This document shows, one piece after another, positions 6,043-19,074 of a stretch of 64,000 nt of DNA. The stretch is from a virus. The translations under genes were made by a program, and so were the position numbers. The notes under the pieces are model-generated. The model was not told the DNA's origin. It saw nothing but the letters and a program-made list of their open reading frames with translations, and ran no database searches. How positions within the stretch are numbered: the first letter of the stretch is position 1; each line of letters begins with the position of its first letter. The stretch lies in the IMG/VR virus record IMGVR_UViG_3300042402_001868, positions 1-64,000 of that record; one strand, 5' to 3'.

Positions 6043-6064
6043 TATAAGTAGAAGTATATTTATA
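6043..6064. promoter_or_regulatory. Closely spaced late promoters for the two divergent genes (TATAAGTA on + at 6043-6050; TATAAATA on - at 6057-6064)
   Basis: Both motifs lie in the 41-bp gap between the divergent tape-measure and gp26-like genes. Confidence 0.55.
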
Positions 6065-6072
6065 GGTGCAAA

Positions 6073-6915
6073 ATGACCCAAACTGCTAACCCTTTACGTC
6101 AATTTTTTAGACAACCAGCAATTTACTTGAGACTGCCGAGCAATGGAAATTTCTGGCCCAAGGACTCGATAGATTTTCCAGCCAATATGGAATTGCCAGT
6201 TTTGCCAATGACTGCTATCGACGAAATCACGTATCGTACTCCAGATGCACTGTTCAACGGACAAGCTGTGGTTTCTGTTATTCAAAGTTGTGTGCCAAAC
6301 ATCAAAGATGCATGGAAAACTCCCAGCATTGATATCAACGCCATTTTGGTTGCTCTTAGAATTGCCAGCTACGGGCATGAACTAGAAATAACATCCACTT
6401 GTCCAAAATGTGCTGAACCAGGAGACTTTAATCTTGATTTAAGAACCGTACTTGATCAGATCAAATCTCCAGACTTTGCAGAAAGTATCAAGCACGGGGA
6501 TCTAGAAATATTTTTCAAACCCATGGACTATGCTGAACAACATAATACCAACCACGAGCAGTGGCAGGAACAACGGTTAATTCAGATGATTCCCGGTTCA
6601 GACTTGCCTGATGACGAAAAAATTGCCAAACTCAATGAGGCATTGCAAAAACTCACCAAGCTCACTGTGAATGCACTAAAGCACAGCATTGCCTGTATCA
6701 AAACACCCAAAGCAATGGTAACCGAAACAGAATTTATTTCTGAATTTTTAAGCAACTGCGATAGAAAATTGTTTAACCAGATCAGAGATCAAGTGATTGT
6801 CTATAGAGAAAGCACAGAGTTCAAACCCATGCATTTGACTTGCCATAGTTGTGAACACGAATATAATCAAGCGTTAACATTGGACATGGCAAGTTTTTTC
6901 GAACCCGCCTCCTGA
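6073..6915 (+). CDS. gp26: Baseplate hub assembly protein / tail assembly chaperone (T4 gp26-like)
   Basis: LPSNG..PMTAIDEI..DINAILVALRIASYG and two CxxC pairs (CPKC, CHSC). It ends ...SFF on a slippery T-TTT-TTC. Confidence 0.75.
   Translation: MTQTANPLRQFFRQPAIYLRLPSNGNFWPKDSIDFPANMELPVLPMTAIDEITYRTPDALFNGQAVVSVIQSCVPNIKDAWKTPSIDINAILVALRIASYGHELEITSTCPKCAEPGDFNLDLRTVLDQIKSPDFAESIKHGDLEIFFKPMDYAEQHNTNHEQWQEQRLIQMIPGSDLPDDEKIAKLNEALQKLTKLTVNALKHSIACIKTPKAMVTETEFISEFLSNCDRKLFNQIRDQVIVYRESTEFKPMHLTCHSCEHEYNQALTLDMASFFEPAS
6894..6900 (+). other. Putative -1 programmed ribosomal frameshift site T TTT TTC
   Basis: In-frame X XXY YYZ heptamer 4 sense codons before the stop. The -1 frame is open and continuous with ORF 6933-7130. 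Confidence 0.7.
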
Positions 6916-6932: not shown

Positions 6933-7130
6933 GTGGAGGATTTGTTAAATCAAATGGAGCGGGAGGCTAACGAATTAAAACGTCAAGGTTTAAAAATGTC
7001 ATGGTACATGCGTGGTGGTGCCACATATGATGATGTGATGAATATGAGTCATGCCGAGCGAACCATGATCAGTGAGTTGATCAAGGACAATCTTGAAACA
7101 ACTAAAAACAGTAAACTACCGTTCTTCTAA
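6933..7130 (+). CDS. gp51-like / frameshift-extension part of the tail chaperone
   Basis: 65 aa from a GTG with no evident SD. W-Y-M-R-G-G...M-x3-ER pattern. It is in the -1 frame of the gp26-like gene. Confidence 0.65.
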   Translation: MEDLLNQMEREANELKRQGLKMSWYMRGGATYDDVMNMSHAERTMISELIKDNLETTKNSKLPFF

Positions 7131-7633
7131 TGGATATAGATCAAGTTAAACAAGATATTGAAAAGTGGATCATGGATTTTGTAGAAGTCCCTCATGCTGC
7201 CTTGGGTGGATTTCCACCTTGCCCTTACGCACGTAGCGCAAGACTAAAACAAAGCTACGATATATTCATTGGTAGCGATCCTTACTTTGACCTAAAAAAT
7301 CGAGCCCGTTATGGCATGGGCAATCGAGAAGTTGTGGTGTATGCATACGACCCTCAAGAATGGCCACATGATTTGTTTGCCAGCAGTTTAGATCAAGCCA
7401 ACAGAGATTTTTTACTGGCAGCAGATATACTAGCCCTGGAAGATCATCCCAACGATGTGGAAATAGTAAATGGCATTTGCATGAATCAAGGCACATATGC
7501 CCTGGCTCTTGTGCAGAGTCTAAGTGATCTCAATGTCAAAGCACGACTAATGGCCAGCAAAGGATTTTACGACTCCTGGCCAGACGATTATCTAACTGCG
7601 CTATTTCAGCACAGGGAGGATCCTCGCAAATGA
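7130..7633 (+). CDS. Hypothetical protein, DUF1415-like
   Basis: W-x-x-x-F-V...PCPYA and EDHP motifs resemble DUF1415 (LCPFA...FHP). Translationally coupled (TAATG). Confidence 0.5.
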   Translation: MDIDQVKQDIEKWIMDFVEVPHAALGGFPPCPYARSARLKQSYDIFIGSDPYFDLKNRARYGMGNREVVVYAYDPQEWPHDLFASSLDQANRDFLLAADILALEDHPNDVEIVNGICMNQGTYALALVQSLSDLNVKARLMASKGFYDSWPDDYLTALFQHREDPRK

Positions 7634-8064
7634 CATATCAATTTGCTAGAATAAATCTAGAAAAAACTACCTACAAGCCCGCAGTTGATTGGTTTTATAT
7701 CACCAAACCCAATATTGCAGAGCTACAAGACATATACAGAACCTATTGCACCTACAAACACTTTGCTAGTGTAATGCCGCTGTTTGACAGTCAGTTCACA
7801 GAGCCAGGCACAGATTTAATTGGCTATAGAGACAACGGTGAACTGGCAGCGTTTTCCATGATAAAACGGTACGACGACAAGAATTTATTAGCCGCACAAT
7901 TTGCCTGGAACTATCGCAAACCCCGACTACGTTTGGGAATCTCAAGTTTACAAACAGAATGTGCAATCTACAGAGACCGCGGATTCCAGTACTTGTATCT
8001 GGATCAAGCGCACTTGTACAAACAAGACCTTGAAGGTTTTGAAATACTGGGACCGTTAGAATAA
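7630..8064 (+). CDS. ATE/Bpt-like aminoacyl-tRNA transferase (GNAT-like C-terminal domain)
   Basis: YRKPRLRLGISSLQTECAIYRDRGFQYLYL...YKQDLEGFEIL matches the ATE_C pattern (YDP..SLG...EI..A...G..YLYLG...YK..F...E.L). Confidence 0.55.
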   Translation: MTYQFARINLEKTTYKPAVDWFYITKPNIAELQDIYRTYCTYKHFASVMPLFDSQFTEPGTDLIGYRDNGELAAFSMIKRYDDKNLLAAQFAWNYRKPRLRLGISSLQTECAIYRDRGFQYLYLDQAHLYKQDLEGFEILGPLE

Positions 8065-9200
8065 TGTACAGTGTATATCAACATTGGGACCCACTTCGAG
8101 TATGTGTGGTAGGTAGAAGTTATCCTCCAGAGTTTTACTCCTGGATCAACGTACCTCACGTGCGCAGTTTGTTTGAAAAAATTGCAATCGAAACTGAAGA
8201 AGACTATCAGAACATTATTAAAAAACTCCAGGAGTTTGGTGTTGAAGTTTTACGTCCAGATTTATCTAGTGAAACATTTGTCAAGGGTCAGTATGTTCCT
8301 CCTCCTATGACTCCTAGAGATTATACTGTCATGGTTGGCGATACATTTTACACGCAATACGGCAACATTGATCATCAAATAAAATTATTTTATAACAGAG
8401 TTAAAGATATTTCCTGGCCAAACTGTAACAATCTGTCAGAGTTCAATAATCTACCAGTTTATATACAAGACGAATGTAAAAATGTTCATCAATTTGACCA
8501 GTATGTTTTTAAAACAAATCCGTACAACAAAATTGTCGAGCATATCAAACAACATGGTAATGTTGTTAAAACACTAGACAACCAGAATATCAACGGTGCT
8601 ATGATATCTCGCATAGGAAAAGACTTGTACTTTGGTACAGACTTGTATCAAGATAATCAAACAGATATCAAGAATCAAATGGATCTTGAATTTTCAAATT
8701 ACAGAAATCATGTTGTCAATACTGGTGGTCACTCTGATGCAACATATTGTCCAGTATGCCCTGGACTAATTGTAAGTCTAGTAGATGTACCGACCTATGC
8801 AGACACTTATCCTGGATGGGAAGTGATATATTTGCCTGGTCAGAGTTGGCACAAGGTCAGACCTTTTTTAGATCTTAAAGAAAAAAATAAAGGCAAGTGG
8901 TGGATTCCTGGGTTTGAATACGATCAAGATGTAGTTGATGTTGTTGAAACCTGGTTAGGACATTGGACTGGGTATGTAGAAGAAACTGTGTTTGACGTTA
9001 ATATGTTGATTGTTGATCCTAAAAATGTTATAGTATTTAATTACAACAAAACAGTTTTTGATGCGCTAGATCGTTATGGCATTACCCCGCATATTGTGCC
9101 TTTCAGACATAGATATTTTTGGGACGGTGGTATACACTGTGTAACTAGTGATATACACCGAGAAGGCACAATGCAAGATTATTTTAAAGAAAGAAGTTAA
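8064..9200 (+). CDS. Amidinotransferase (glycine/inosamine-phosphate amidinotransferase family)
   Basis: N-terminal HWDPLRVCVVG, PRD, HSD, DVNML and the C-terminal catalytic GGIHCVTSDIHREG. Confidence 0.85.
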   Translation: MYSVYQHWDPLRVCVVGRSYPPEFYSWINVPHVRSLFEKIAIETEEDYQNIIKKLQEFGVEVLRPDLSSETFVKGQYVPPPMTPRDYTVMVGDTFYTQYGNIDHQIKLFYNRVKDISWPNCNNLSEFNNLPVYIQDECKNVHQFDQYVFKTNPYNKIVEHIKQHGNVVKTLDNQNINGAMISRIGKDLYFGTDLYQDNQTDIKNQMDLEFSNYRNHVVNTGGHSDATYCPVCPGLIVSLVDVPTYADTYPGWEVIYLPGQSWHKVRPFLDLKEKNKGKWWIPGFEYDQDVVDVVETWLGHWTGYVEETVFDVNMLIVDPKNVIVFNYNKTVFDALDRYGITPHIVPFRHRYFWDGGIHCVTSDIHREGTMQDYFKERS

Positions 9201-9201
9201 C

Positions 9202-9540
9202 ATGGCAGACATTTACACAATTTGGGCAGACAAAGAAGGCGACATCTCAGACTTGGACTGGGTCAACGGCATGAAAAGTTTTTTTGATCATTTAAAATCA
9301 GAAGGCCGTATGGAGGACTATCGCATCACTAGATGCAAGATGGGGTTTAGATCAATCGCAGACATGCCCGAATGGATGATACTCATGGAGTTCCGAGACA
9401 TGGCTCAGATGGATTCAGCTTTCAAACGTGTTGCTCCGTTGTCTGGAGAATTAGAAGCCAAACACAAGAGTTTTAATCAATTTGTGTCAGGAACAATTCA
9501 GCATGCATTGTTCCGTGATTGGCCCGACACGTTTGTATGA
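9202..9540 (+). CDS. Hypothetical protein, DUF6614-like (dimeric alpha/beta barrel-type)
   Basis: Probable start at the ATG at 9202 (MADIYTIW). Motifs YRITRCKMGF..PEWMILMEF..MAQMDSAF..ALFRDWPD. Confidence 0.55.
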   Translation: MADIYTIWADKEGDISDLDWVNGMKSFFDHLKSEGRMEDYRITRCKMGFRSIADMPEWMILMEFRDMAQMDSAFKRVAPLSGELEAKHKSFNQFVSGTIQHALFRDWPDTFV

Positions 9541-10550
9541 AGATTTGCATTTTTTCTGGCAGATCAATTGGAGGTACATTCCTTGATTGGAGCATACATT
9601 TTCTAACTGGCCAGACACAGTATTTTTCGTCAAAACAAAATCAGTTTATTCCTCTAAGCCAAAATCCAGTAAATCACATTCAACACAATGCTCATGGGCA
9701 TTTAAAAAATCATCCAGCAGGAGCCGACAAAACAAAACAGTTTCTTGAAACGTGTAACTCGACTGAATTATACTCGTTATACGCATGTCCACTTCATAAC
9801 AGTACAATTATAGAAAAATATAAAATTGATCCTGTAAAAGAAAATCTCAATGAGATCACTCAACACAAGTTAGCTGACATAAAAAAATTATTCACAGTAA
9901 TGGCAGAACACGGTTCAGCAACTGTTCATCTAGCTGGTGAATCGTTTGTTCCGTTGTATTTTTTAGGTGTTAGAGATCTTGGTACGTTTGTGCTTAAAAA
10001 TGGAAAGCCAGCATCAGTTGAAGAATTAAAAAATGATTTTGAGACTGTATTTTTTAGTGACAGCAATGAAAAGTGGAATGCCGCAGGATTAACCAACAGT
10101 TGGGATATTAGAGAAAAAAATGCTTTAAACATCAGACCACTGGATCCCATACACGAACATTACCTATCAATTCCACACCTGCGTATTGACTGCAGAGAAT
10201 TATGGCATAACGGAATCAGTGTTATCAACAGAGTCATAAACTATCTTAAACTCAAGATTGTACCAGACAGATTTGCCCAATGGAAGAACGTTTATGCCCA
10301 ATGGAGCAAGACACATATAGAATCCATGGAGTTTGTATACAACTGTGATCATATTGTGTCAGCAATTGTTAACAATTGGGACTATGCTATCAATTTGACA
10401 TTTGAGCAAGAGGTAATAATACAACACTTTTTGATTTACAAACATGGTCTTAATCTTAAAACCTGGCAACTAGACAAATTTCCCAGCAATACAAATCAAC
10501 TGCACAGTCTTCTAGAAAACAACATACATCAAATTCCCAAGATCTACTAA
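9537..10550 (+). CDS. Hypothetical protein, sulfotransferase/P-loop-like N-terminus
   Basis: Start at an ATGA overlap. IFSGRSIGGTFLDWSI resembles the PAPS 5'-PSB loop. AT-rich. Confidence 0.45.
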   Translation: MKICIFSGRSIGGTFLDWSIHFLTGQTQYFSSKQNQFIPLSQNPVNHIQHNAHGHLKNHPAGADKTKQFLETCNSTELYSLYACPLHNSTIIEKYKIDPVKENLNEITQHKLADIKKLFTVMAEHGSATVHLAGESFVPLYFLGVRDLGTFVLKNGKPASVEELKNDFETVFFSDSNEKWNAAGLTNSWDIREKNALNIRPLDPIHEHYLSIPHLRIDCRELWHNGISVINRVINYLKLKIVPDRFAQWKNVYAQWSKTHIESMEFVYNCDHIVSAIVNNWDYAINLTFEQEVIIQHFLIYKHGLNLKTWQLDKFPSNTNQLHSLLENNIHQIPKIY

Positions 10551-10963: not shown

Positions 10964-11392
10964 TTACAGTTTGTCTATTATATGAGAGCCATGCACACGC
11001 ACTTGTATGTGGCCATTGTAATAATCTCGTGATTCCAATACTCTTCTTGAAAATTGCTCTCTTGCTTCGATGTAACTACATTCCGATTTGGAGTTGCAAT
11101 AAAAAAGTATTTCTCTGGTGAAGTTTTCGGTGCCTAGTTTGATTACGTCTAAAGTTAATTCTGGGCTTGACCCATAGTACTCTCTCCAGTCTGAGTCGAC
11201 CTTTGATCGTATCTTTTTCTTCTTCTTGATGCCGTTCTTTTGCTTAACTGTCTTGTATGTTGTCTTGCTAAATTTTGCTAATTTTTTGCCTATGTACTTG
11301 CGTCCAGTGAGATTATTTGTGATCAAGTAAACAAATCCAACACACTCTTCGGGCAACGTCTCGATTGGGGTATCTTGATATAGCCATGTCAT
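10964..11392 (-). CDS. GIY-YIG family endonuclease (Seg/EndoII-like, single domain)
   Basis: GFVYLITNNLTGRKYIGKK, YYGSS, FTREIL, E, YYN motifs, with a Lys-rich insert. Confidence 0.85.
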   Translation of the reverse strand: MTWLYQDTPIETLPEECVGFVYLITNNLTGRKYIGKKLAKFSKTTYKTVKQKNGIKKKKKIRSKVDSDWREYYGSSPELTLDVIKLGTENFTREILFYCNSKSECSYIEAREQFSRRVLESRDYYNGHIQVRVHGSHIIDKL

Positions 11393-11451: not shown

Positions 11452-13533
11452 TTATGCCAGCTCTATGTCTGTATTGTAGCTAGTGAAGCCGTTTTCTTTG
11501 ACAACTTTCAGGATGTTTTCCACACGTCCTGCAAGCTCATCTCTATGACTCACCAGCCAAATTGATTTGTGTCGTTCTCTGCTCATCTTCTTCAGCAATG
11601 CCAAGGCATTTTCCACGCCTTGTGTGTCTAGCCCGTTGTCAATTAGTTCGTCAATAAACAACAAGTTGATTGGCGAGTACAAACTTTCCCAAACATCTCG
11701 GAATGCCCAGCTCATGGATAAGATCAAGCGATTGCGCTCACCACGTGATAAGTTATCAAAGTCCAGTTCACGACCCAGTTCTTCAATCATCACACTCAAG
11801 TCGTTTTGGAACTTCACAGTATGTGGCAAACCAATACGATCTAAGTAGTGTGTGAGTCGTGCATTTAGATAACTCAAATTCTGATCAATAATCTTCTTAC
11901 GCACAAAACTATCTTTTGATGTCAATAGTTTGAGCAAGAAGTCTTGATGTTCTTGAAGTCTTGTAAGGTCATTGAGTGCATCGTAGCTTACAACTTGTAA
12001 TGCCTGTTGTTGCATTTCGACAATCTGTTCTGTGTAAGGATCCTTCTCTTCACCTTTGGTGGCAATCTGTGTCAGCAGAGTGTTCATGCGACTACGATGA
12101 TCAACTGCCTGTGCTTCTGTATCGTAATGTGTGACAGGTTGTGTGCCAACCTCTACAGGTGTATGTTCTGCCAGTTGTTCAGCATAGGGATCTGTTTCTG
12201 CACGTTTAGCATCAATCTTGTGCTGAATGTTTTCCAGTTCACTTGAGTGACGAATGGCTTGTGTTTCTGTTCGGTAATGTGTGGTAGGTTTAATACCCAG
12301 TTCACCTAGTGCAGCCAATGCATCTGTATTTTCCATCCACTGACCATTTGTGGACAATGCTTGTAGTGCGGCGTCCTGCAGAGCTTTTTCTTTTGTGCCC
12401 AATACTGTTTCGTGATTGGCGTCATGAAAGTCTTGACCACATGCATAACATTTGTGATTTTTTAGTTCTTCAATTTCAGTTCTGAGTTTATCAATGACTT
12501 TTTGTTCTTTGGCTTCATCCGCAACACATCTGGCAATCAGTTTCTCAAGGTCTGCAATGTCCTTGGCTTGTTGTGTGTAAGCGACCAAGTCCACATGTGC
12601 CTGTAGTTCTGCTTGAATATCAATATGGCTGAGATTGTTGTAAGTTAGTTCCAACTCGCTGATGTCTTTTTGTTGTTTTTGTTTCCAAGCAGTTTGTCGA
12701 CCAACTAGAGCAGTATACGCATCTTGTTGTTGTTTCCTTGTGGTCCACACGGCTAGATCTTTGTGAGCCAGCAATTCTACTTCGATGTCAATCTTGGCTA
12801 GATCATCATATTGTGCCACAAGGTACGCTACATCACTGTCGTACTTTTTTTGCCAAAGCACTTGCCTGCGTTTCAAACTTTCGATCTGTTCTTCGATGCG
12901 TTTGTTGGCTTCTTGCTCGGCGCGGATACGGAATTCTTCTTGTGAGATGCTGTCTTTGGTCTGACGGTTGAGTTCTTTGATGGCGTCTGCACGTTCCGAA
13001 AGCAAGGTGATGCCCAACAACTGTTCAATGATGTTGCGTTGGTCATTGGCTTTTAAACTCAAGAATGGTTCGGTATAAGTGTTCAACGCCAACACATGTT
13101 TAAACATGTCGTGGCTCATATTCATCACACGTTCGATGGCATCTTGTGTTTCTCGGCTGTCGCCTTGAGCTTCGTCTGTGGCTACCTGAGCCTCATTGTT
13201 TACATAGAATCGTAGCACGTTGGGTTTACGCCCACGCTCAATCTTGTATTCTTGTCCGTTAACAGCAAAATCCAGACTCACAAGCATGTTCTTACCATTG
13301 GTCTTGTTCACAAGATTGTCTTTGCGGATATTACTCAAGGCCTGGCCGTACAGGGCATAACTCAGCGCATTGATGATTGTGGTCTTGCCTGTACCGTTTC
13401 TAGAACCGTCGCCACCAAGATCCAGATTCTCTCCTAGCACAAGCGTAAGATCGTTGCGATCAAAGTCAATGCCCTGTGTGGCATTGCCCACACTCATAAA
13501 GTTCTTAACAGTTAAATTTTTAATTTGAATCAT
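11452..13533 (-). CDS. gp46: Recombination endonuclease ATPase subunit (T4 gp46 / SbcC / Rad50)
   Basis: Walker A NGTGKTT, zinc hook CYAC, signature LSRGE, Walker B LLFIDE, H-loop VSH. Confidence 0.95.
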   Translation of the reverse strand: MIQIKNLTVKNFMSVGNATQGIDFDRNDLTLVLGENLDLGGDGSRNGTGKTTIINALSYALYGQALSNIRKDNLVNKTNGKNMLVSLDFAVNGQEYKIERGRKPNVLRFYVNNEAQVATDEAQGDSRETQDAIERVMNMSHDMFKHVLALNTYTEPFLSLKANDQRNIIEQLLGITLLSERADAIKELNRQTKDSISQEEFRIRAEQEANKRIEEQIESLKRRQVLWQKKYDSDVAYLVAQYDDLAKIDIEVELLAHKDLAVWTTRKQQQDAYTALVGRQTAWKQKQQKDISELELTYNNLSHIDIQAELQAHVDLVAYTQQAKDIADLEKLIARCVADEAKEQKVIDKLRTEIEELKNHKCYACGQDFHDANHETVLGTKEKALQDAALQALSTNGQWMENTDALAALGELGIKPTTHYRTETQAIRHSSELENIQHKIDAKRAETDPYAEQLAEHTPVEVGTQPVTHYDTEAQAVDHRSRMNTLLTQIATKGEEKDPYTEQIVEMQQQALQVVSYDALNDLTRLQEHQDFLLKLLTSKDSFVRKKIIDQNLSYLNARLTHYLDRIGLPHTVKFQNDLSVMIEELGRELDFDNLSRGERNRLILSMSWAFRDVWESLYSPINLLFIDELIDNGLDTQGVENALALLKKMSRERHKSIWLVSHRDELAGRVENILKVVKENGFTSYNTDIELA

Positions 13534-14639
13534 AGGTTGATTTTATTATACAGGGGTTTGTATTCTGTTTCAACGTATTCGAGCAACCGAGCACGATTGT
13601 GTTCTAAGATAGGTGTCATAGCTTGGTACATGTCAACCAGCTCGCTAATCGGTTTAGTTATAATGCTCTGTACAACGTTGCAACACTTTAAAAATCTTAA
13701 CTGCGGATCCAATTCATTGTCATAACTTTCATCCCAAAAGTTGTCAAAAGTTTTAAACCCATGTTTTCTTAGATACCTTAGTGTGCCTTTGGCTGAGAAA
13801 AGTACAAACGGAGTTTTGAACAATAATGGCTTTAACGTTTTTTCGCTAATGAAAACATGAGGGTAATCAAACACAGTCTCTAATACAACTTCAAGAAAAA
13901 AATCATTGTAGAAGTTGCTAGAGTCGCCTTCTAGGTCACTGCGAGGATAGTCTCTAAAAGAATTTAAGTCTATAATATCGTTATATTGACTTTGCGAAAA
14001 ACATGTCTCGTTAATACGATGTGGAGATGTGTATATCATATTTGACAAACTCTTTGATGGATACACTAGGTTGTGCAGGTGCTTGGTGCCAACAGAGTTG
14101 GATCTTAATTTTTTATGAAATTTAGACTTATAATTCACCTTGATGTAGTCAAATAAGTTATTTTTTACAAGGTATTGAAAAAATTTAGTACGAGGTTGTC
14201 TTTCAACACCTAACAAACAAAATGCACTGTGTGAAATTTTTTTAGACGCTATAAACGTCGGCACAGCAAGCACTCCGTTCCATGAATGGTTATTAACTAA
14301 AGTTGGTATAATCAACGGACGATCACGCTGATGTACAATAAACGGATCAATGGCAGCATCAAGATCACTGTGATTGGTATAAACTACCATGACATGATAT
14401 GGGATATCCAAGTCTCTCCAACAAGTTAATAGATTGTGCATGGTAAACCCTAACTTGTTTCCGTAATAGAAGTATTCTGTATCGTTATGCAGTATTATGA
14501 TTTTATCAGATGGTGTATATTGGTCTTTTTTTACAGCAGTTAACTGTTCAACCAGCAGATCAAAATTCTGATCATAGTCCAGCAGATTGAACACATTGAG
14601 TACATTGACATCGGCATTGATAAAATCTTGATGAGTCAT
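13530..14639 (-). CDS. Glycosyltransferase-like protein (ET...SEKxxKP...GFxTF..DESYD family)
   Basis: VVLETVFDYPHVFISEKTLKPL...GFKTFDNFWDESYD, reminiscent of the GT10/GT-B nucleotide-sugar-binding motif. Paralogous to 55872-56996 and 61182-62120. Confidence 0.55.
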   Translation of the reverse strand: MTHQDFINADVNVLNVFNLLDYDQNFDLLVEQLTAVKKDQYTPSDKIIILHNDTEYFYYGNKLGFTMHNLLTCWRDLDIPYHVMVVYTNHSDLDAAIDPFIVHQRDRPLIIPTLVNNHSWNGVLAVPTFIASKKISHSAFCLLGVERQPRTKFFQYLVKNNLFDYIKVNYKSKFHKKLRSNSVGTKHLHNLVYPSKSLSNMIYTSPHRINETCFSQSQYNDIIDLNSFRDYPRSDLEGDSSNFYNDFFLEVVLETVFDYPHVFISEKTLKPLLFKTPFVLFSAKGTLRYLRKHGFKTFDNFWDESYDNELDPQLRFLKCCNVVQSIITKPISELVDMYQAMTPILEHNRARLLEYVETEYKPLYNKINL

Positions 14640-15443
14640 TTAAAATTTAAAAATATGTAATCTTATCCAATGGGCATGTGCTTGCTGTAGATAAACATGA
14701 TCAATGGGTGCAATACCTAATTGTTTACACAACAAGTCTATTGCAGGCACTAGTTTGTTTATATCTAAAATTTCGCTCAGATTGATAAAAATACTGTTCT
14801 CTGGAAAGTTAGCTTGATTTGCAAAAAATTTAGTGTTTGGATTGTTCCATAGTACTCGACGATAAAAACTAAACACGCTCTCGTCTACAAACATTGGATT
14901 GTTGAATCCCTTCATGATGGATCTAGTAGGTTCTGGATACATATCAGGATTGTTAATCTTGAGATAAATTTTGTTATCTTTGACACCGTAGTGTTTAAAC
15001 CAAAGCGACTTTCTTAAAAATCTCAAGGATGGTTGATCATTGATAATAACCAACGGTGCTAGATTCTGATAGGCCACAGGAGGGACTGGTTTGTTGTTTA
15101 CAATCAAAATGTGCTTGTTGATACTAACAGACTTCCAAAAATATTCGCTAGCATCTGTTTGCAGTTGAGTGTTAAAGTCGGTAATTGTTTGGCTACTGCC
15201 ACGGGCCATTTTGTTACTGATCCAATGTATATTCCACGGAGTCACTGGATTTGGCTCAGTCTTTAACCATGAATCAAAAGAACTAAACGAATTGCGCACG
15301 TAAGACAGTAGTTGATCATTGGTTTTATTTTCTTCAATTGATTGATCAAAATGTGCTACGGATCGACTGCCCATTAGTAATGATAGAAGAAACTTTCCGG
15401 CAGCTCCTTCGTTGAAGCGCACAAACAAAAAATTAGGTTTCAA
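14640..15443 (-). CDS. Hypothetical protein, sulfotransferase-like N-terminal loop
   Basis: Likely TTG start overlapping the upstream TGA. FVRFNEGAAGKFLLSLL loop. Confidence 0.45.
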   Translation of the reverse strand: MKPNFLFVRFNEGAAGKFLLSLLMGSRSVAHFDQSIEENKTNDQLLSYVRNSFSSFDSWLKTEPNPVTPWNIHWISNKMARGSSQTITDFNTQLQTDASEYFWKSVSINKHILIVNNKPVPPVAYQNLAPLVIINDQPSLRFLRKSLWFKHYGVKDNKIYLKINNPDMYPEPTRSIMKGFNNPMFVDESVFSFYRRVLWNNPNTKFFANQANFPENSIFINLSEILDINKLVPAIDLLCKQLGIAPIDHVYLQQAHAHWIRLHIFKF

Positions 15444-16402
15444 CTGTTGATACCTTGAACACACTGTTGAATACTTTGATCTATAGTTTGATAGTGATAT
15501 TTGCCAAAGGTTAACGACAACTTATCAACTGATGGAATTCTGACTAAAACATCATGCGAGTACTCCTTGACTGTTTGAAATTCCAAGTGGTCGGTAGAGT
15601 CTTGCCAATGAAAAATCTTTTCAGCAAGTTGTTTCATAGTAACAGGCTCAACATTGCAAATGTTAAATGCTTGGTTAAGTGCGCGATCATCAAAACTGTA
15701 TCGAGATATAATTTCAGCAACATCGTCAATCCATGTAAAGCATCTAATCTGATTGCCGTCTCCAATTATTGGTAACGGATTGAGTTTGTTAACTAGAATG
15801 TTGTTAATAAAATCTGCAAACACATGACTAAAGCCTTGTGTGGGCATAGACTTTTCGTACGGAGTAATAATATTAAAAGGCCGCCACACTGTGTAGTTGA
15901 TGCTGTATTGTTTATAAAATGCCTGGCACATTCTCTCACCGAGCAGCTTGCTCAAGCCGTAGTCTGTTTTAGGAACAACACAGTCATTGACTAAATCTTC
16001 AGTCACTGGATAATGGGGGTCTTGAATGCAAGATTCGTATACCATACTAGAACTAATGTACACTACATGTTTAACATTGTGCTTGGCACAGCTTTGTAAT
16101 ATGTTGCCTTGAATCGCAGTGTCGTCGGCAATGATATCACCACAATAGTGATTAAACCCTCCGACACCGTAAATTTTTGCTGCCGCTAAAAACACAACGT
16201 CAAACCCCTGACAAAGATCAGCAGTTGCTTGCCGATCAGCTAGGTCTTGATTGATAAACTTGTAATCTTGATTTGCCAAAGTAGAAACCTTGCCATGTCG
16301 ATACAAGTTATCAATTCCGACTATGGTATGCCCTTGTTTTAGAAGTTTTGGAATGACAGCTTGCATCAAACTGCCTTCGCTTCCGGTAATTAATATTTTC
16401 AT
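15440..16402 (-). CDS. NAD-dependent nucleotide-sugar epimerase/dehydratase (extended SDR)
   Basis: ILITGSEG Rossmann motif, ISSSMVY, YGLSK catalytic YxxxK, GDGNQIRCFTWIDD. Confidence 0.9.
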   Translation of the reverse strand: MKILITGSEGSLMQAVIPKLLKQGHTIVGIDNLYRHGKVSTLANQDYKFINQDLADRQATADLCQGFDVVFLAAAKIYGVGGFNHYCGDIIADDTAIQGNILQSCAKHNVKHVVYISSSMVYESCIQDPHYPVTEDLVNDCVVPKTDYGLSKLLGERMCQAFYKQYSINYTVWRPFNIITPYEKSMPTQGFSHVFADFINNILVNKLNPLPIIGDGNQIRCFTWIDDVAEIISRYSFDDRALNQAFNICNVEPVTMKQLAEKIFHWQDSTDHLEFQTVKEYSHDVLVRIPSVDKLSLTFGKYHYQTIDQSIQQCVQGINS

Positions 16403-17169
16403 TTAAAATTTTTGTTGTCGTTAACAATAGCTGAAAACAGATTTAAATCTGTCAGACCTAAAGACTGTGCAAACGAAGCAAATGCTTCGGTATCCTTGGG
16501 CAAACAATGCCCGCCAAATCCTCTATAATTGGCACTACAAAGCAAGTAGTCTGGAAGGATTCCGCGTTTTTTAGTAATAGCTTGCAACACGTTTTGATAA
16601 TCAGCTTTTGTTTTTTGACAAACTTCAAACATGTTGTTGGCAAATACAATTCTTAATGCATTATACAAGTTGGAAAAATATTTAACTATTTCTGCTTCAG
16701 TAGGTGTTACTCTACTAGAAGATTTGGGAATGAGTCTGTGGCTAGCAACAATTTGTTCGTAAACATAGTTGTTATCAGTACCGACTACCAGTACATCGTG
16801 ATTATTAACAAAATCTGCAAGTGCAGATTTGGCCCTTAGAAATTCTGGAACCATACAAATTTTTAAATTAGGATATTGCCCAATCAATGATTCGGTGGTG
16901 CCAGGTAACACAGTGCTTTTAATAGCAATAATTCCAGAGTACATTAAGTCATTGAGATTCTGAACAATCTGATAAATCTGAGTCAGATCGCAATGTCCGT
17001 TGCTGGTGTCAGTTGGCACACAAACAAAGATGATATCAGTGGTTACTACGTCATTTATAGAGGTGTCGGGGTGAGCAATGTCATAAAAATACATATCATT
17101 ACCAACCTGTCCCAAGCCTTGGTAAACAGCTAGTCCGACTACACCTAATCCAATGATTCCAATTTTCAT
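16399..17169 (-). CDS. UDP-glucose/GDP-mannose 6-dehydrogenase family protein (short form)
   Basis: GLGVVG, CVPT, IKSTVLPGTT, PEFL, AEIVKY..N and the catalytic GFGGHCLPKD. Confidence 0.9.
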   Translation of the reverse strand: MKIGIIGLGVVGLAVYQGLGQVGNDMYFYDIAHPDTSINDVVTTDIIFVCVPTDTSNGHCDLTQIYQIVQNLNDLMYSGIIAIKSTVLPGTTESLIGQYPNLKICMVPEFLRAKSALADFVNNHDVLVVGTDNNYVYEQIVASHRLIPKSSSRVTPTEAEIVKYFSNLYNALRIVFANNMFEVCQKTKADYQNVLQAITKKRGILPDYLLCSANYRGFGGHCLPKDTEAFASFAQSLGLTDLNLFSAIVNDNKNFK

Positions 17170-18182
17170 AATGTTTGATAAATCCTTAGTAACAATTTGT
17201 TGTCGTAGAACTCTGACTCGATGTTAGTAAGTTGATCTGTTACAATTTGATCCACAGATTCAAATTTTACTTCTCCAGGTGCCATGTCTGTATCTACACC
17301 AGAGTTTTTGTTGGGAATCAATGCCATTTCTCGCAGTTGATATTGTTTAATAAATGTTTCTTTGATAAAGTTAGCTTCTTCATAACTGATTTCAATGTCT
17401 AGTTGCACACGAACATGCATGTCTTTTGCAAGTAGCGTGGCAGCGTTGTCAATAACCGAGCTCAGGCCTAGCACACGATATCTAGGTTGGTCAGGCCAAG
17501 CATGATGTACAGGATCCTGCCCCCATTCTAAAATAGTTAATCCGCGATCATCATCACCAGCGTCAGCATAGTTGTGCGGAAAGCAGTTGCCAATATAGGT
17601 GATGTTCTTTTTGGTTTGACGTTTGTGAAAGTGTCCAGTGAATACATGTTCGAAGTTGTTGAAGTCTTCTCTGCGGATCTCGCCGTGGTCTGGCATTTCT
17701 ACCATGGCATTCATCATGTAGCCGGGCAGTTCAAAGTGTCCAAACATGTACTTGCCTGACAGTTTTGGTATGCGTTTGTGATCGTCACCACACAGCCAGG
17801 GAGCAATAACCACATCACCACTGCTGAACCAATCGTTGCATATAGTAACATTAGGTAGATGCCTTGCCCACTCCACACTTTGTATATCGCGATTGTCTCG
17901 ATAATATAGATCGTGATTACCGGGAATAAAATAAACACGCTCAAAGTTGGCACTCATGTGCTCCAATGCTTGGAGACTGTAGTTGAGTGTAACAATGTTT
18001 AGGCTGGACCGGTTGTTGTGCCAGTCGCCTAAGAACAAACAGGTTTCGCAACCCTCTGCCTGGGCTTTAGCGGTGGCCCACTTGACAAAAGCCAAGCAGT
18101 CTTCGTTGTGTAACGTACTGTTTGACTTTAGGCCAAAGTGGATGTCTGTGAAGATTGCGGCTTTTTTAAATAGATTTGTCAT
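17166..18182 (-). CDS. gp47: Recombination endonuclease nuclease subunit (T4 gp47 / SbcD / Mre11)
   Basis: Metallophosphoesterase motifs TDIHFG, LGD, GNHD, GHFH. Start taken at MTNLFKK. Confidence 0.93.
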   Translation of the reverse strand: MTNLFKKAAIFTDIHFGLKSNSTLHNEDCLAFVKWATAKAQAEGCETCLFLGDWHNNRSSLNIVTLNYSLQALEHMSANFERVYFIPGNHDLYYRDNRDIQSVEWARHLPNVTICNDWFSSGDVVIAPWLCGDDHKRIPKLSGKYMFGHFELPGYMMNAMVEMPDHGEIRREDFNNFEHVFTGHFHKRQTKKNITYIGNCFPHNYADAGDDDRGLTILEWGQDPVHHAWPDQPRYRVLGLSSVIDNAATLLAKDMHVRVQLDIEISYEEANFIKETFIKQYQLREMALIPNKNSGVDTDMAPGEVKFESVDQIVTDQLTNIESEFYDNKLLLRIYQTL

Positions 18183-19074
18183 ATAGCAATTGTACATGAT
18201 CTAGTAGGCATTTAGCAAGAGCCTGGTGGCTCAAAGGACCAACATGTACCCCGTCTGTGCCAAAATCCACAATATAATCTGGAGAATAACAATATTCTGG
18301 GTGTGTCAGGTATTCATGCAGATATCTAGATCTATATTGATTAGAACCAGCTAGTATACTAGTTATGACAAATTTACATTTTTTAGATCGAAGATATTTT
18401 GCCCCAGCTTGCAACATTGACAGTTGATTAAAAAACAAAATGTCGTCGTTGTATACTTTTAATAACTCTCGAGAGTTGCGTAATTGGGCTTCAACTGATT
18501 GGCAGTTTTGAAATAGTGTTAGTCTTTCGGGAGTAGTTAGTTGCCATACTACTGTGTCTTGTTGTTGTATATCTGCTTCGACAAGGTGACGAAACGACCA
18601 ATGAGTTGAACTACCACCTTTAGCTATAATTTTTGAAGGTATACCAATTGCCTCACCTAGTAGCACACCAAACGATTTTTCTTTTGGTAACAATCCAACT
18701 CCGGCACTATGACTGCAACCAAACACCCATACAACTGGATCGTTGTTGTGTCTTGATAATTGTTGATTGGCATCTGTGAACACAACTGCTCGGCCACCGT
18801 GAAAATTAGTTACACGACATCTATGCTTGAGAAATTGCAATAGTAGTACAGTTTCTCTATAAAGATCTGAGTTGATATCAAATTGATCTTGTACAAAATT
18901 TACAACATCAAAATGTTTGCTAATAGAAATAATTTCTTCTGCAGACAAATCGCCTAATGAAGTGTGATACTGATCAGCAACAACCTTGATGTTTGTATTG
19001 GTAATTAATACAGATGTTGAGTTTATTAATCCAAAATCTACTACTGGATTAAACAAATGTAGTGTTTTTGTCAT
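18166..19074 (-). CDS. SGNH/GDSL hydrolase-like protein (possible acyl-esterase/transferase)
   Basis: Block I FGCSHSAG, block II GGS, block V DGVH. Confidence 0.55.
   Translation of the reverse strand: MTKTLHLFNPVVDFGLINSTSVLITNTNIKVVADQYHTSLGDLSAEEIISISKHFDVVNFVQDQFDINSDLYRETVLLLQFLKHRCRVTNFHGGRAVVFTDANQQLSRHNNDPVVWVFGCSHSAGVGLLPKEKSFGVLLGEAIGIPSKIIAKGGSSTHWSFRHLVEADIQQQDTVVWQLTTPERLTLFQNCQSVEAQLRNSRELLKVYNDDILFFNQLSMLQAGAKYLRSKKCKFVITSILAGSNQYRSRYLHEYLTHPEYCYSPDYIVDFGTDGVHVGPLSHQALAKCLLDHVQLLYDKSI

Follow-up and report, generated by a model that had tools for sequence, protein, structure and literature searches.

Gene organisation of the locus

The window analysed here is a stretch of 64,000 nucleotides (positions 1 to 64,000 of the IMG/VR virus record IMGVR_UViG_3300042402_001868; G+C content 42.6%), which opens the record, 155.9 kb long, of a T4-like phage. 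We focused on five genes at 7130-10550, all on the plus strand, whose stop and start codons overlap or abut, located downstream of a gp26-like baseplate-hub gene and of a small open reading frame (ORF) of 65 amino acids (aa). The locus combines known kinds of enzymes in a phage system that is itself undescribed, as our literature search found no paper on this operon. Three of the genes constitute a conserved core and encode a candidate aminoacyl-tRNA-dependent transferase (orf144), a candidate haem enzyme (orf167) and a DUF6614 protein, to which an amidinotransferase (AMT378) and a variable last gene (orf343) are added. The genes are arranged as follows:

6073-6915, plus strand: gp26-like baseplate-hub gene (PF12322 T4_baseplate, E 1.8e-15; phrog_150 baseplate hub, E 1.4e-15)
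6933-7130, plus strand: 65-aa ORF, occupying the place of gp51 (hub assembly factor); stop codon shared in part with the start codon of orf167 (TAATG); no match in Pfam or PHROG
7130-7633, plus strand: orf167, 167 aa, DUF1415/DUF6875-like; candidate haem oxygenase with a Cys ligand and the 'sandwich' fold of AglA
7630-8064, plus strand: orf144, 144 aa, one GNAT domain with homology to ATE_C; candidate transferase using aminoacyl-tRNA
8064-9200, plus strand: AMT378, 378 aa, L-arginine-type amidinotransferase of the GATM/StrB1/HsvA/SxtG family; optional module
9202-9540, plus strand: DUF6614 protein (PF20319), 112 aa; member of the core trio
9537-10550, plus strand: orf343, 337 aa counted from ATG 9537; variable accessory gene, possibly sulfotransferase-like

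The successive junctions on the plus strand read TAATG, ATGA, TAATG, TAA-C-ATG and ATGA and, since all of them overlap or abut, the five genes are translationally coupled. A comparison with 22 homologues placed the start of the DUF6614 gene at ATG 9202 and not at GTG 9148, and orf343 most likely starts at ATG 9537 instead of 9519, the position given by the ORF call. Two relatives were used to estimate the ratio of non-synonymous to synonymous substitutions (dN/dS), which revealed purifying selection on all five genes, with values between 0.05 and 0.21 and the lowest (~0.05) for DUF6614. These values, together with the hundreds to thousands of homologues found for each of them, indicate that the five genes are real.

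The gp26-like gene is the first gene of the transcription unit. No exact copy of the T4 late-promoter motif TATAAATA was found on the plus strand upstream of the operon; an exact copy of TATAAATA is present at 6057-6064 on the minus strand, before a 939-aa gene which, with a T4-type portal gene, makes up the upstream neighbourhood on that strand, and a one-mismatch TATAAGTA is on the plus strand, ~23 nucleotides ahead of the gp26 ATG. The segment 6043-6064 is a divergent promoter region. Inside the gene row, no terminator-like or promoter-like site exceeded the shuffled expectation. Because the operon is coupled to gp26, we infer that it is co-transcribed with the baseplate-hub genes and expressed late.

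On the downstream side, a segE-type GIY-YIG homing endonuclease gene (10964-11392, minus strand) is followed, on the same strand, by a gp46/SbcC-like gene. The endonuclease gene is found just 3' of the cassette also in ~20 related loci, where the next gene is often one for a radical SAM/SPASM protein, missing from this place in our phage. The endonuclease may drive the exchange of the variable genes at the 3' end of the cassette.

A conserved trio with exchangeable partners

At least 542 IMG/VR contigs carried a relative of orf144, and 46 loci with enough flanking sequence were compared. The genes for orf167, orf144 and DUF6614 were present in 46/46 loci, preceded in 45 by gp26 and the 65-aa ORF, whereas the orf343 gene was found in 14 and the amidinotransferase in 10; these counts define the trio as the core of the system, and the amidinotransferase and orf343 as exchangeable add-ons. 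A preliminary description of the locus, made from the sequence alone, had recognised the five overlapping or abutting genes after gp26 and grouped them in one cassette, and indeed the genes recur together in relatives. On the other hand, the amidinotransferase and the sulfotransferase-like gene, which it had listed as parts of the cassette, are optional and do not form its heart, and it had considered the combination unusual for a phage, which the number of contigs contradicts, though tblastn searches with orf144 and DUF6614 gave no match in 50,697 GenBank phage records.

In distant lineages the trio was also observed away from gp26 (e.g., L030-32, L036-38, L046, L050). All of the five large contigs with a bare trio had amidinotransferase homologues elsewhere, and three cassettes (L015, L026, L032) contained two amidinotransferase copies. 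In addition, an orf167-like gene adjoins the amidinotransferase without orf144 in L033 and L067/68/71/77, and in one protein, P0310 (572 aa), residues 7-164 form an orf167-like domain that is joined in frame to a full amidinotransferase (residues 168-570).

When the amidinotransferase was used as the anchor, a relative was found in 117 IMG/VR stretches, and 80 loci were kept. In ~35 of them the gene adjoins orf167 and orf144; in the remaining loci it stands alone between genes for a gp32-like single-stranded-DNA-binding protein, UvsX/UvsY, gp46 or DNA polymerase. Such positions, found in many T4-like contigs, together with the GTP cyclohydrolase I genes near the cassette in L006, L028 and L050, could suggest that these enzymes decorate a base or a metabolite of the nucleotide pool. 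However, accessory genes of T4-like hyperplastic regions typically sit between replication genes, so that this placement is what any T4-like accessory gene would show; moreover, no DNA transglycosylase, kinase or base-transferase was found in or near the operon, and the trio of this phage is within a structural module. We therefore regard a nucleotide or DNA modification as very improbable.

The families of orf144, orf167 and DUF6614 are essentially viral (2528 clusters for orf144 and 4115 for orf167; 935 representatives at 50% identity). A blastn search of the operon region against GenBank phages gave no match, and a few cultured marine phages carry solo orf167-like genes (25-28% identity). 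Among 185,579 species genomes, orf144 gave three matches, all on contigs of metagenome-assembled genomes (MAGs) resembling binned phage, and PF20319 was detected in one of the 151 Bacteroidota genomes sampled, on the contigs that had given the orf144 matches. Two contigs of a Haliscomenobacter MAG (L081 and L082; 148 and 183 kb) carry orf144 and DUF6614; they are phage-like and binned with this Bacteroidota MAG, which is a weak hint that the hosts belong to the Bacteroidota.

The mini-GNAT orf144

The profile of orf144 (26 homologues) gave the yeast-type ATE1 7wfx as the top PDB match (E 1.6e-3). Moreover, when the 26 phage sequences were compared by hhalign with eight Bacteroidota Bpt-like proteins passing the ATE_C cut-off, they matched these genuine ATE_C domains with 88% probability (E 3.1e-6) over 123 columns. 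The alignment was confined to the ATE_C part (Bpt residues ~82-216) and kept the signature LG...E...G..Y.Y.G...YK. Because it covers this part alone, we consider orf144 an ATE_C-only relative of Bpt/ATE1. It differs from these enzymes in having no ATE_N domain, as judged by the Pfam scan of its 144 aa, in its length, ~60% of that of bacterial Bpt, and in its score against Pfam ATE_C (PF04377; E 3.2e-4), which at 21.8 bits (21.1 bits in the genome scan) did not reach the cut-off of 25.

The AlphaFold2 model of orf144 (mean predicted local distance difference test, pLDDT, 90.8) consists of one complete GNAT domain, similar to many GNATs with Z values of 11-15. MprF, ATE1, Sba18/Sbb17 and FemX were near the top of the Foldseek results, mixed with acetyl-CoA GNATs, and VIA-align gave Z values of 15.0 for VipF, 14.0 for FemX, 13.5 for MprF, 12.4 for Sbb17 and 11.2 for ATE1. 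The GNAT domains of Sba18/Sbb17 (from streptothricin-type pathways), FemX and MprF, which are thus among the best structural matches of orf144, take aminoacyl-tRNA as the donor for acylating an amine or hydroxyl that is not part of a protein; unlike orf144, these proteins are tandem-GNAT or larger, and share no detectable sequence relation with it.

Since acyl-CoA and aminoacyl-tRNA GNATs both score high, the fold alone does not name the donor of orf144. An ordinary acyl-CoA N-acyltransferase, in an operon unrelated to tRNA and acetylating, for example, the product of the other enzymes, would agree with the best structural match being the acetyl-CoA enzyme VipF, with the many acetyltransferases at Z 11-13 and with the sub-threshold ATE_C score. 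By contrast, no acetyltransferase family of Pfam matched orf144 at E <= 0.1, and its significant profile relations were with ATE1 and Bpt only. In the alignment, the β4-α3 loop does not contain the CoA-binding motif R/Q-x-x-G-x-G/A, and in the structural comparison residues 1-18 have counterparts only in tandem GNATs such as FemX, MprF and ATE1, within the second domain. On this basis we judge an acyl-CoA enzyme unlikely. Most likely, orf144 takes an amino acid from an aminoacyl-tRNA and attaches it to an amine, with arginine as our leading guess for the amino acid moved.

The candidate thiolate-haem enzyme orf167

The model of orf167 (pLDDT 94.4) contains 7 helices and 4 strands. In the exhaustive VIA-align comparison with 48,161 representative chains, apo-AglA (9ub3) ranked first, with Z 7.4 and a root-mean-square deviation of 3.9 over 148 of 167 residues; the next chain was at Z 4.3, and AglA was the sole match above background. 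The YqcI/YcgG enzymes have AglA as their prototype; it contains thiolate-ligated haem and acts on an arginine conjugate, whose guanidine it N-hydroxylates (PMC12866846). Foldseek found nothing in the PDB below E 0.05 with the same model, and the orf167 profile gave only chance-level matches among PDB sequences.

Among Pfam families, DUF6875 was the only one recurring in the homologues of orf167, weakly in 23/25 (best E 9e-5), and the use of 30 distant representatives as a bridge to DUF1415/DUF6875 produced three weak DUF6875 matches (best E 4e-5). orf167 itself scored 14.3 bits against DUF6875, below the family cut-off of 24.5; PF08892 (YqcI/YcgG) was not matched, and no score for PF08892, PF21780 or PF07209 exceeded the cut-off. 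Its ESM Atlas neighbours were phage clusters, some of them labelled DUF1415/DUF6875. Across 25 close and 30 distant homologues, Cys31-Pro32, in PCP(Y/F)AR, and the D-H-P of LEDHP were invariant. When orf167 was aligned by hhalign with genuine DUF1415 and YqcI/YcgG proteins, Cys31 fell on the cysteine of CPFA in the former and of FPC in the latter, at probabilities of only 6.6% and 0.4%, respectively, which give these placements no statistical support.

According to a 2025 preprint, the DUF6875 proteins are enzymes that ligate haem through a cysteine ('cytochrome P422') and are built of 7 helices and 4 strands (bioRxiv 10.64898/2025.12.11.692455). orf167 resembles these thiolate-ligated haem tryptophan hydroxylases in the element count, which is that of Mc170, in a conserved Cys-Pro after helix 1, whose Cys is a candidate axial ligand, and in the recurrence of DUF6875 in its homologues; it differs in that all scores are sub-threshold, the RxGxVCP motif is partly kept (…PPCP) and the Trp-binding motifs are not recognised. 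Thus, haem binding by orf167 is a well-motivated proposal. We suggest that orf167 most likely binds haem via the invariant Cys and oxidises a guanidino or other nitrogen, e.g., by N-hydroxylation, and that it is probably the key redox enzyme of the cassette.

The amidinotransferase and the remaining genes

The profile of AMT378 (27 homologues) matched the solved amidinotransferases over the whole length (AGAT, E 4.5e-17; HsvA, 4.6e-15; StrB1, 3.9e-14; SxtG, 2.2e-12). C359, in the C-terminal GG.HC motif, is invariant in the 27 sequences and aligned to AGAT Cys407; H223-x-D225 and D86, the latter in the guanidino-binding PRD motif, are also invariant and align to AGAT His303/Asp305 and Asp170. 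Therefore, as judged from these alignments, AMT378 is an amidinotransferase of the GATM/StrB1 type with intact Cys, His-x-Asp and PRD catalytic residues. It differs from AGAT, StrB1, HsvA and SxtG in the level of similarity (~20-25%), in long divergent middle segments, in an Asn that the alignment tentatively puts at the position of the AGAT triad residue Asp254, in being encoded by a phage and in being multi-copy, with three paralogues in this genome. The two further copies, identified by hmmsearch with E values of 2e-78 and 7e-87, are both on the minus strand: one, at record positions 73047-74072, is in a row with three radical SAM/SPASM genes, and the other, at 98470-99525, has an AhpC-type peroxiredoxin gene two genes away.

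A minus-strand gene at 13530-14639, which overlaps gp46 at its end, encodes a 369-aa protein with homologues directly adjoining stand-alone amidinotransferase genes in ~20 other T4-like contigs. The protein had no match in Pfam, PHROG or the PDB, and a relationship to the amidinotransferases was rejected (hhalign 0.6%). The true SbcD/gp47-like gene is at 17166-18197.

The DUF6614 protein matched PF20319 clearly (E 1.8e-21; 76.7 bits, cut-off 25) and is the most conserved of the five, being 75-96% identical across relatives. Its single PDB match, coproheme decarboxylase (E 0.095), is a lead to a ferredoxin-like, possibly haem-related fold and not evidence for it. Druad1, the anti-Druantia protein published as 'DUF6614', has only 44 aa and owes that name to a weak automatic annotation, and was set aside as irrelevant. 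The product of orf343 gave no match in Pfam or PHROG, and only chance-level ones in the PDB. Its nearest named ESM Atlas clusters were DUF2972 and sulfotransferase-domain proteins (0.92-0.95, with few shared features), and its N-terminal region has a P-loop-like motif, the S..S.GGTF.DWS loop; from these sequence features it is possibly sulfotransferase-like.

The gene identities given in the preliminary description can be revisited with these data. The amidinotransferase was correctly named, and the GNAT/ATE fold expected of the 144-aa protein was predicted; its designation as ATE/Bpt-like stands for the ATE_C homology and has to be qualified by the sub-threshold Pfam score and the missing ATE_N. 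Of the pair called DUF1415/DUF6614-like, the DUF6614 assignment is clear, while we now interpret the DUF1415-like gene through the AglA fold. The sulfotransferase-like label is tentative and derives from a language-model neighbour and the P-loop-like motif.

A putative tailoring pathway

Taken together, we suggest, giving this reading an even chance, that the locus is a phage-specific operon tailoring an amine- or guanidine-bearing substrate by means of an ATE_C-type GNAT, an AglA-fold enzyme and DUF6614, with optional add-ons, and that an arginine-like guanidino group, made or oxidised by these enzymes, is probably at the centre of its chemistry. By analogy with characterised systems, orf144 would aminoacylate an amine from a charged tRNA, and orf167 would use haem, O2 and a host ferredoxin to oxidise one of the nitrogens of the product, with the DUF6614 protein as a putative required partner. 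Where present, the amidinotransferase would turn an amine into a guanidine by amidino transfer from free arginine, and the variable last gene (orf343) may add a further group. The haem binding, the tRNA donor, the amino acid and the order of the steps are what we infer for this pathway, as is the nature of the acceptor; small molecules, amino sugars and protein N-termini are the candidates.

The closest parallel is the argolaphos pathway of Streptomyces monomycini, in which an amine receives arginine from Arg-tRNA through AglC, and the guanidine of that arginine is N-hydroxylated by AglA (PMC12866846, PMC8976061). In both cases a GNAT, dependent on aminoacyl-tRNA in AglC and proposed to be so in orf144, is encoded with a small sandwich-fold enzyme, for which Cys-ligated haem and guanidine oxidation are known in AglA and proposed in orf167. 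The differences are several: the GNATs of the argolaphos cluster are ~342 aa and belong to PF13480 (PMC8976061), compared to the single ATE_C-like domain of 144 aa in orf144; orf167, of 167 aa, is without a PF08892 sequence match; the phage operon has no phosphonate genes and includes DUF6614 as a third obligatory partner; and the setting is a presumed late operon of a phage instead of an actinomycete gene cluster. The phage record also contains, at positions 101902-114637, 24 tRNA genes that cover nearly all amino acids and include tRNA-Arg(TCG) and tRNA-Arg(TCT); this tRNA set is compatible with the proposed steps and not specific to them.

Several observations weigh against the tailoring pathway. 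The cofactor, donor and product are predictions from sequence and models. For orf144, the ATE_C score is below the cut-off, ATE_N is missing and the fold fits acetyl-CoA GNATs such as VipF equally well. For orf167, the Z of 7.4 is in a range that the tool warns can be common, no significant match to the single YqcI/YcgG or DUF1415 sequences was obtained, and its 167 aa compare with 243-274 aa for AglA. In AMT378, the nearly invariant Asn177 aligns to the position of AGAT Asp254, though in a poorly aligned stretch of low confidence. The fusion P0310 is a singleton metagenomic protein on one 6-kb JGI contig. Finally, as the amidinotransferase is absent from 36/46 cassettes, guanidine chemistry may not be the core function.

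Concerning the target, and not the chemistry, the acceptor could be an amino sugar, attached either to a nucleotide or to a surface glycan of the virion or the host. The GNAT would then aminoacylate the amine, the amidinotransferase would give rise to a sugar with an amidino or guanidino group and the last gene would sulfate it. This target is kept alive by genes for two sugar enzymes, an NDP-sugar 4,6-dehydratase/epimerase and an aminotransferase of the DegT type, which lie on either side of the cassette in L006 (294-4997) and L007 (4111-8039) and of the amidinotransferase alone in L028 (5048-8514). In this phage, NAD-dependent epimerase/dehydratase and UDP-glucose/GDP-mannose dehydrogenase-like genes are at 15440-17169, on the minus strand, between gp46 and the SbcD-like gene, and one amidinotransferase paralogue is beside radical SAM/SPASM genes. 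Furthermore, Sbb17/Sba18, among the structural matches of orf144, acylate an amino-sugar intermediate in an aminoacyl-tRNA-dependent manner, StrB1 amidinates an aminocyclitol, and the accessory genes are sulfotransferase-like and SGNH-like. Nevertheless, sugar genes flank the cassette in few lineages only, the neighbours in 45/46 close relatives are gp26, the 65-aa ORF and the homing endonuclease, and the operon has no glycosyltransferase; glycan tailoring appears, on balance, rather unlikely. The sugar genes and GTP cyclohydrolase I around the L006/L007/L028 lineage hint at an amino-sugar or pterin/deazapurine connection.

A virion-protein target is kept alive by the operon being welded to the baseplate-hub genes. 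In its broader form, orf144 would act as Bpt/ATE1 on the N-terminus of host or virion proteins, in N-degron rewiring or virion maturation, and orf167 would oxidise the added residue. This agrees with ATE_C domains being the only sequence-level relatives of orf144, and it has been reported that a distant amidinotransferase (26% identity) of the cyanophage S-SCSM2R was detected in the virion proteome of that phage (PMC12801897). Yet orf144 has no ATE_N, the operon includes no protease or ClpS-like gene, the trio is found outside structural modules too, and in the literature searched no enzyme with the AglA-type fold acts on proteins, the substrate of AglA being a small molecule (PMC12866846). 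For these reasons we consider protein N-terminal aminoacylation quite unlikely.

Returning to the tailoring pathway, in a more specific form it would lead these phages to make an N-oxidised guanidino compound late in infection, such as an N-hydroxy-arginyl conjugate, on which the accessory genes may carry out a further esterification, through an aminoacyl-tRNA mini-GNAT and a non-canonical thiolate-haem enzyme. The compound could serve as an antimetabolite, as a signal or as a covalent mark of the baseplate or cell surface. We know of no phage that makes such a compound, and we offer this proposal as a doubtful one that deserves consideration.

Implications

The absence of orf144 and DUF6614 from the 50,697 deposited phage genomes explains why the system has escaped experimental work. 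If the proposed reading is correct, chemistry of the natural-product type would be present in a large group of T4-like and jumbo phages of fresh water that are as yet uncultured; a structural late operon would provide them with the means to form amides from charged tRNA, to oxidise nitrogen by haem-thiolate and to transfer amidino groups. orf144 would then be the smallest known ATE-type transferase, and functions would be assigned to three large families, namely the DUF1415-like proteins, the phage ATE_C-only proteins and DUF6614. The operon would represent a new class of phage-encoded metabolism, or of virion or surface modification.

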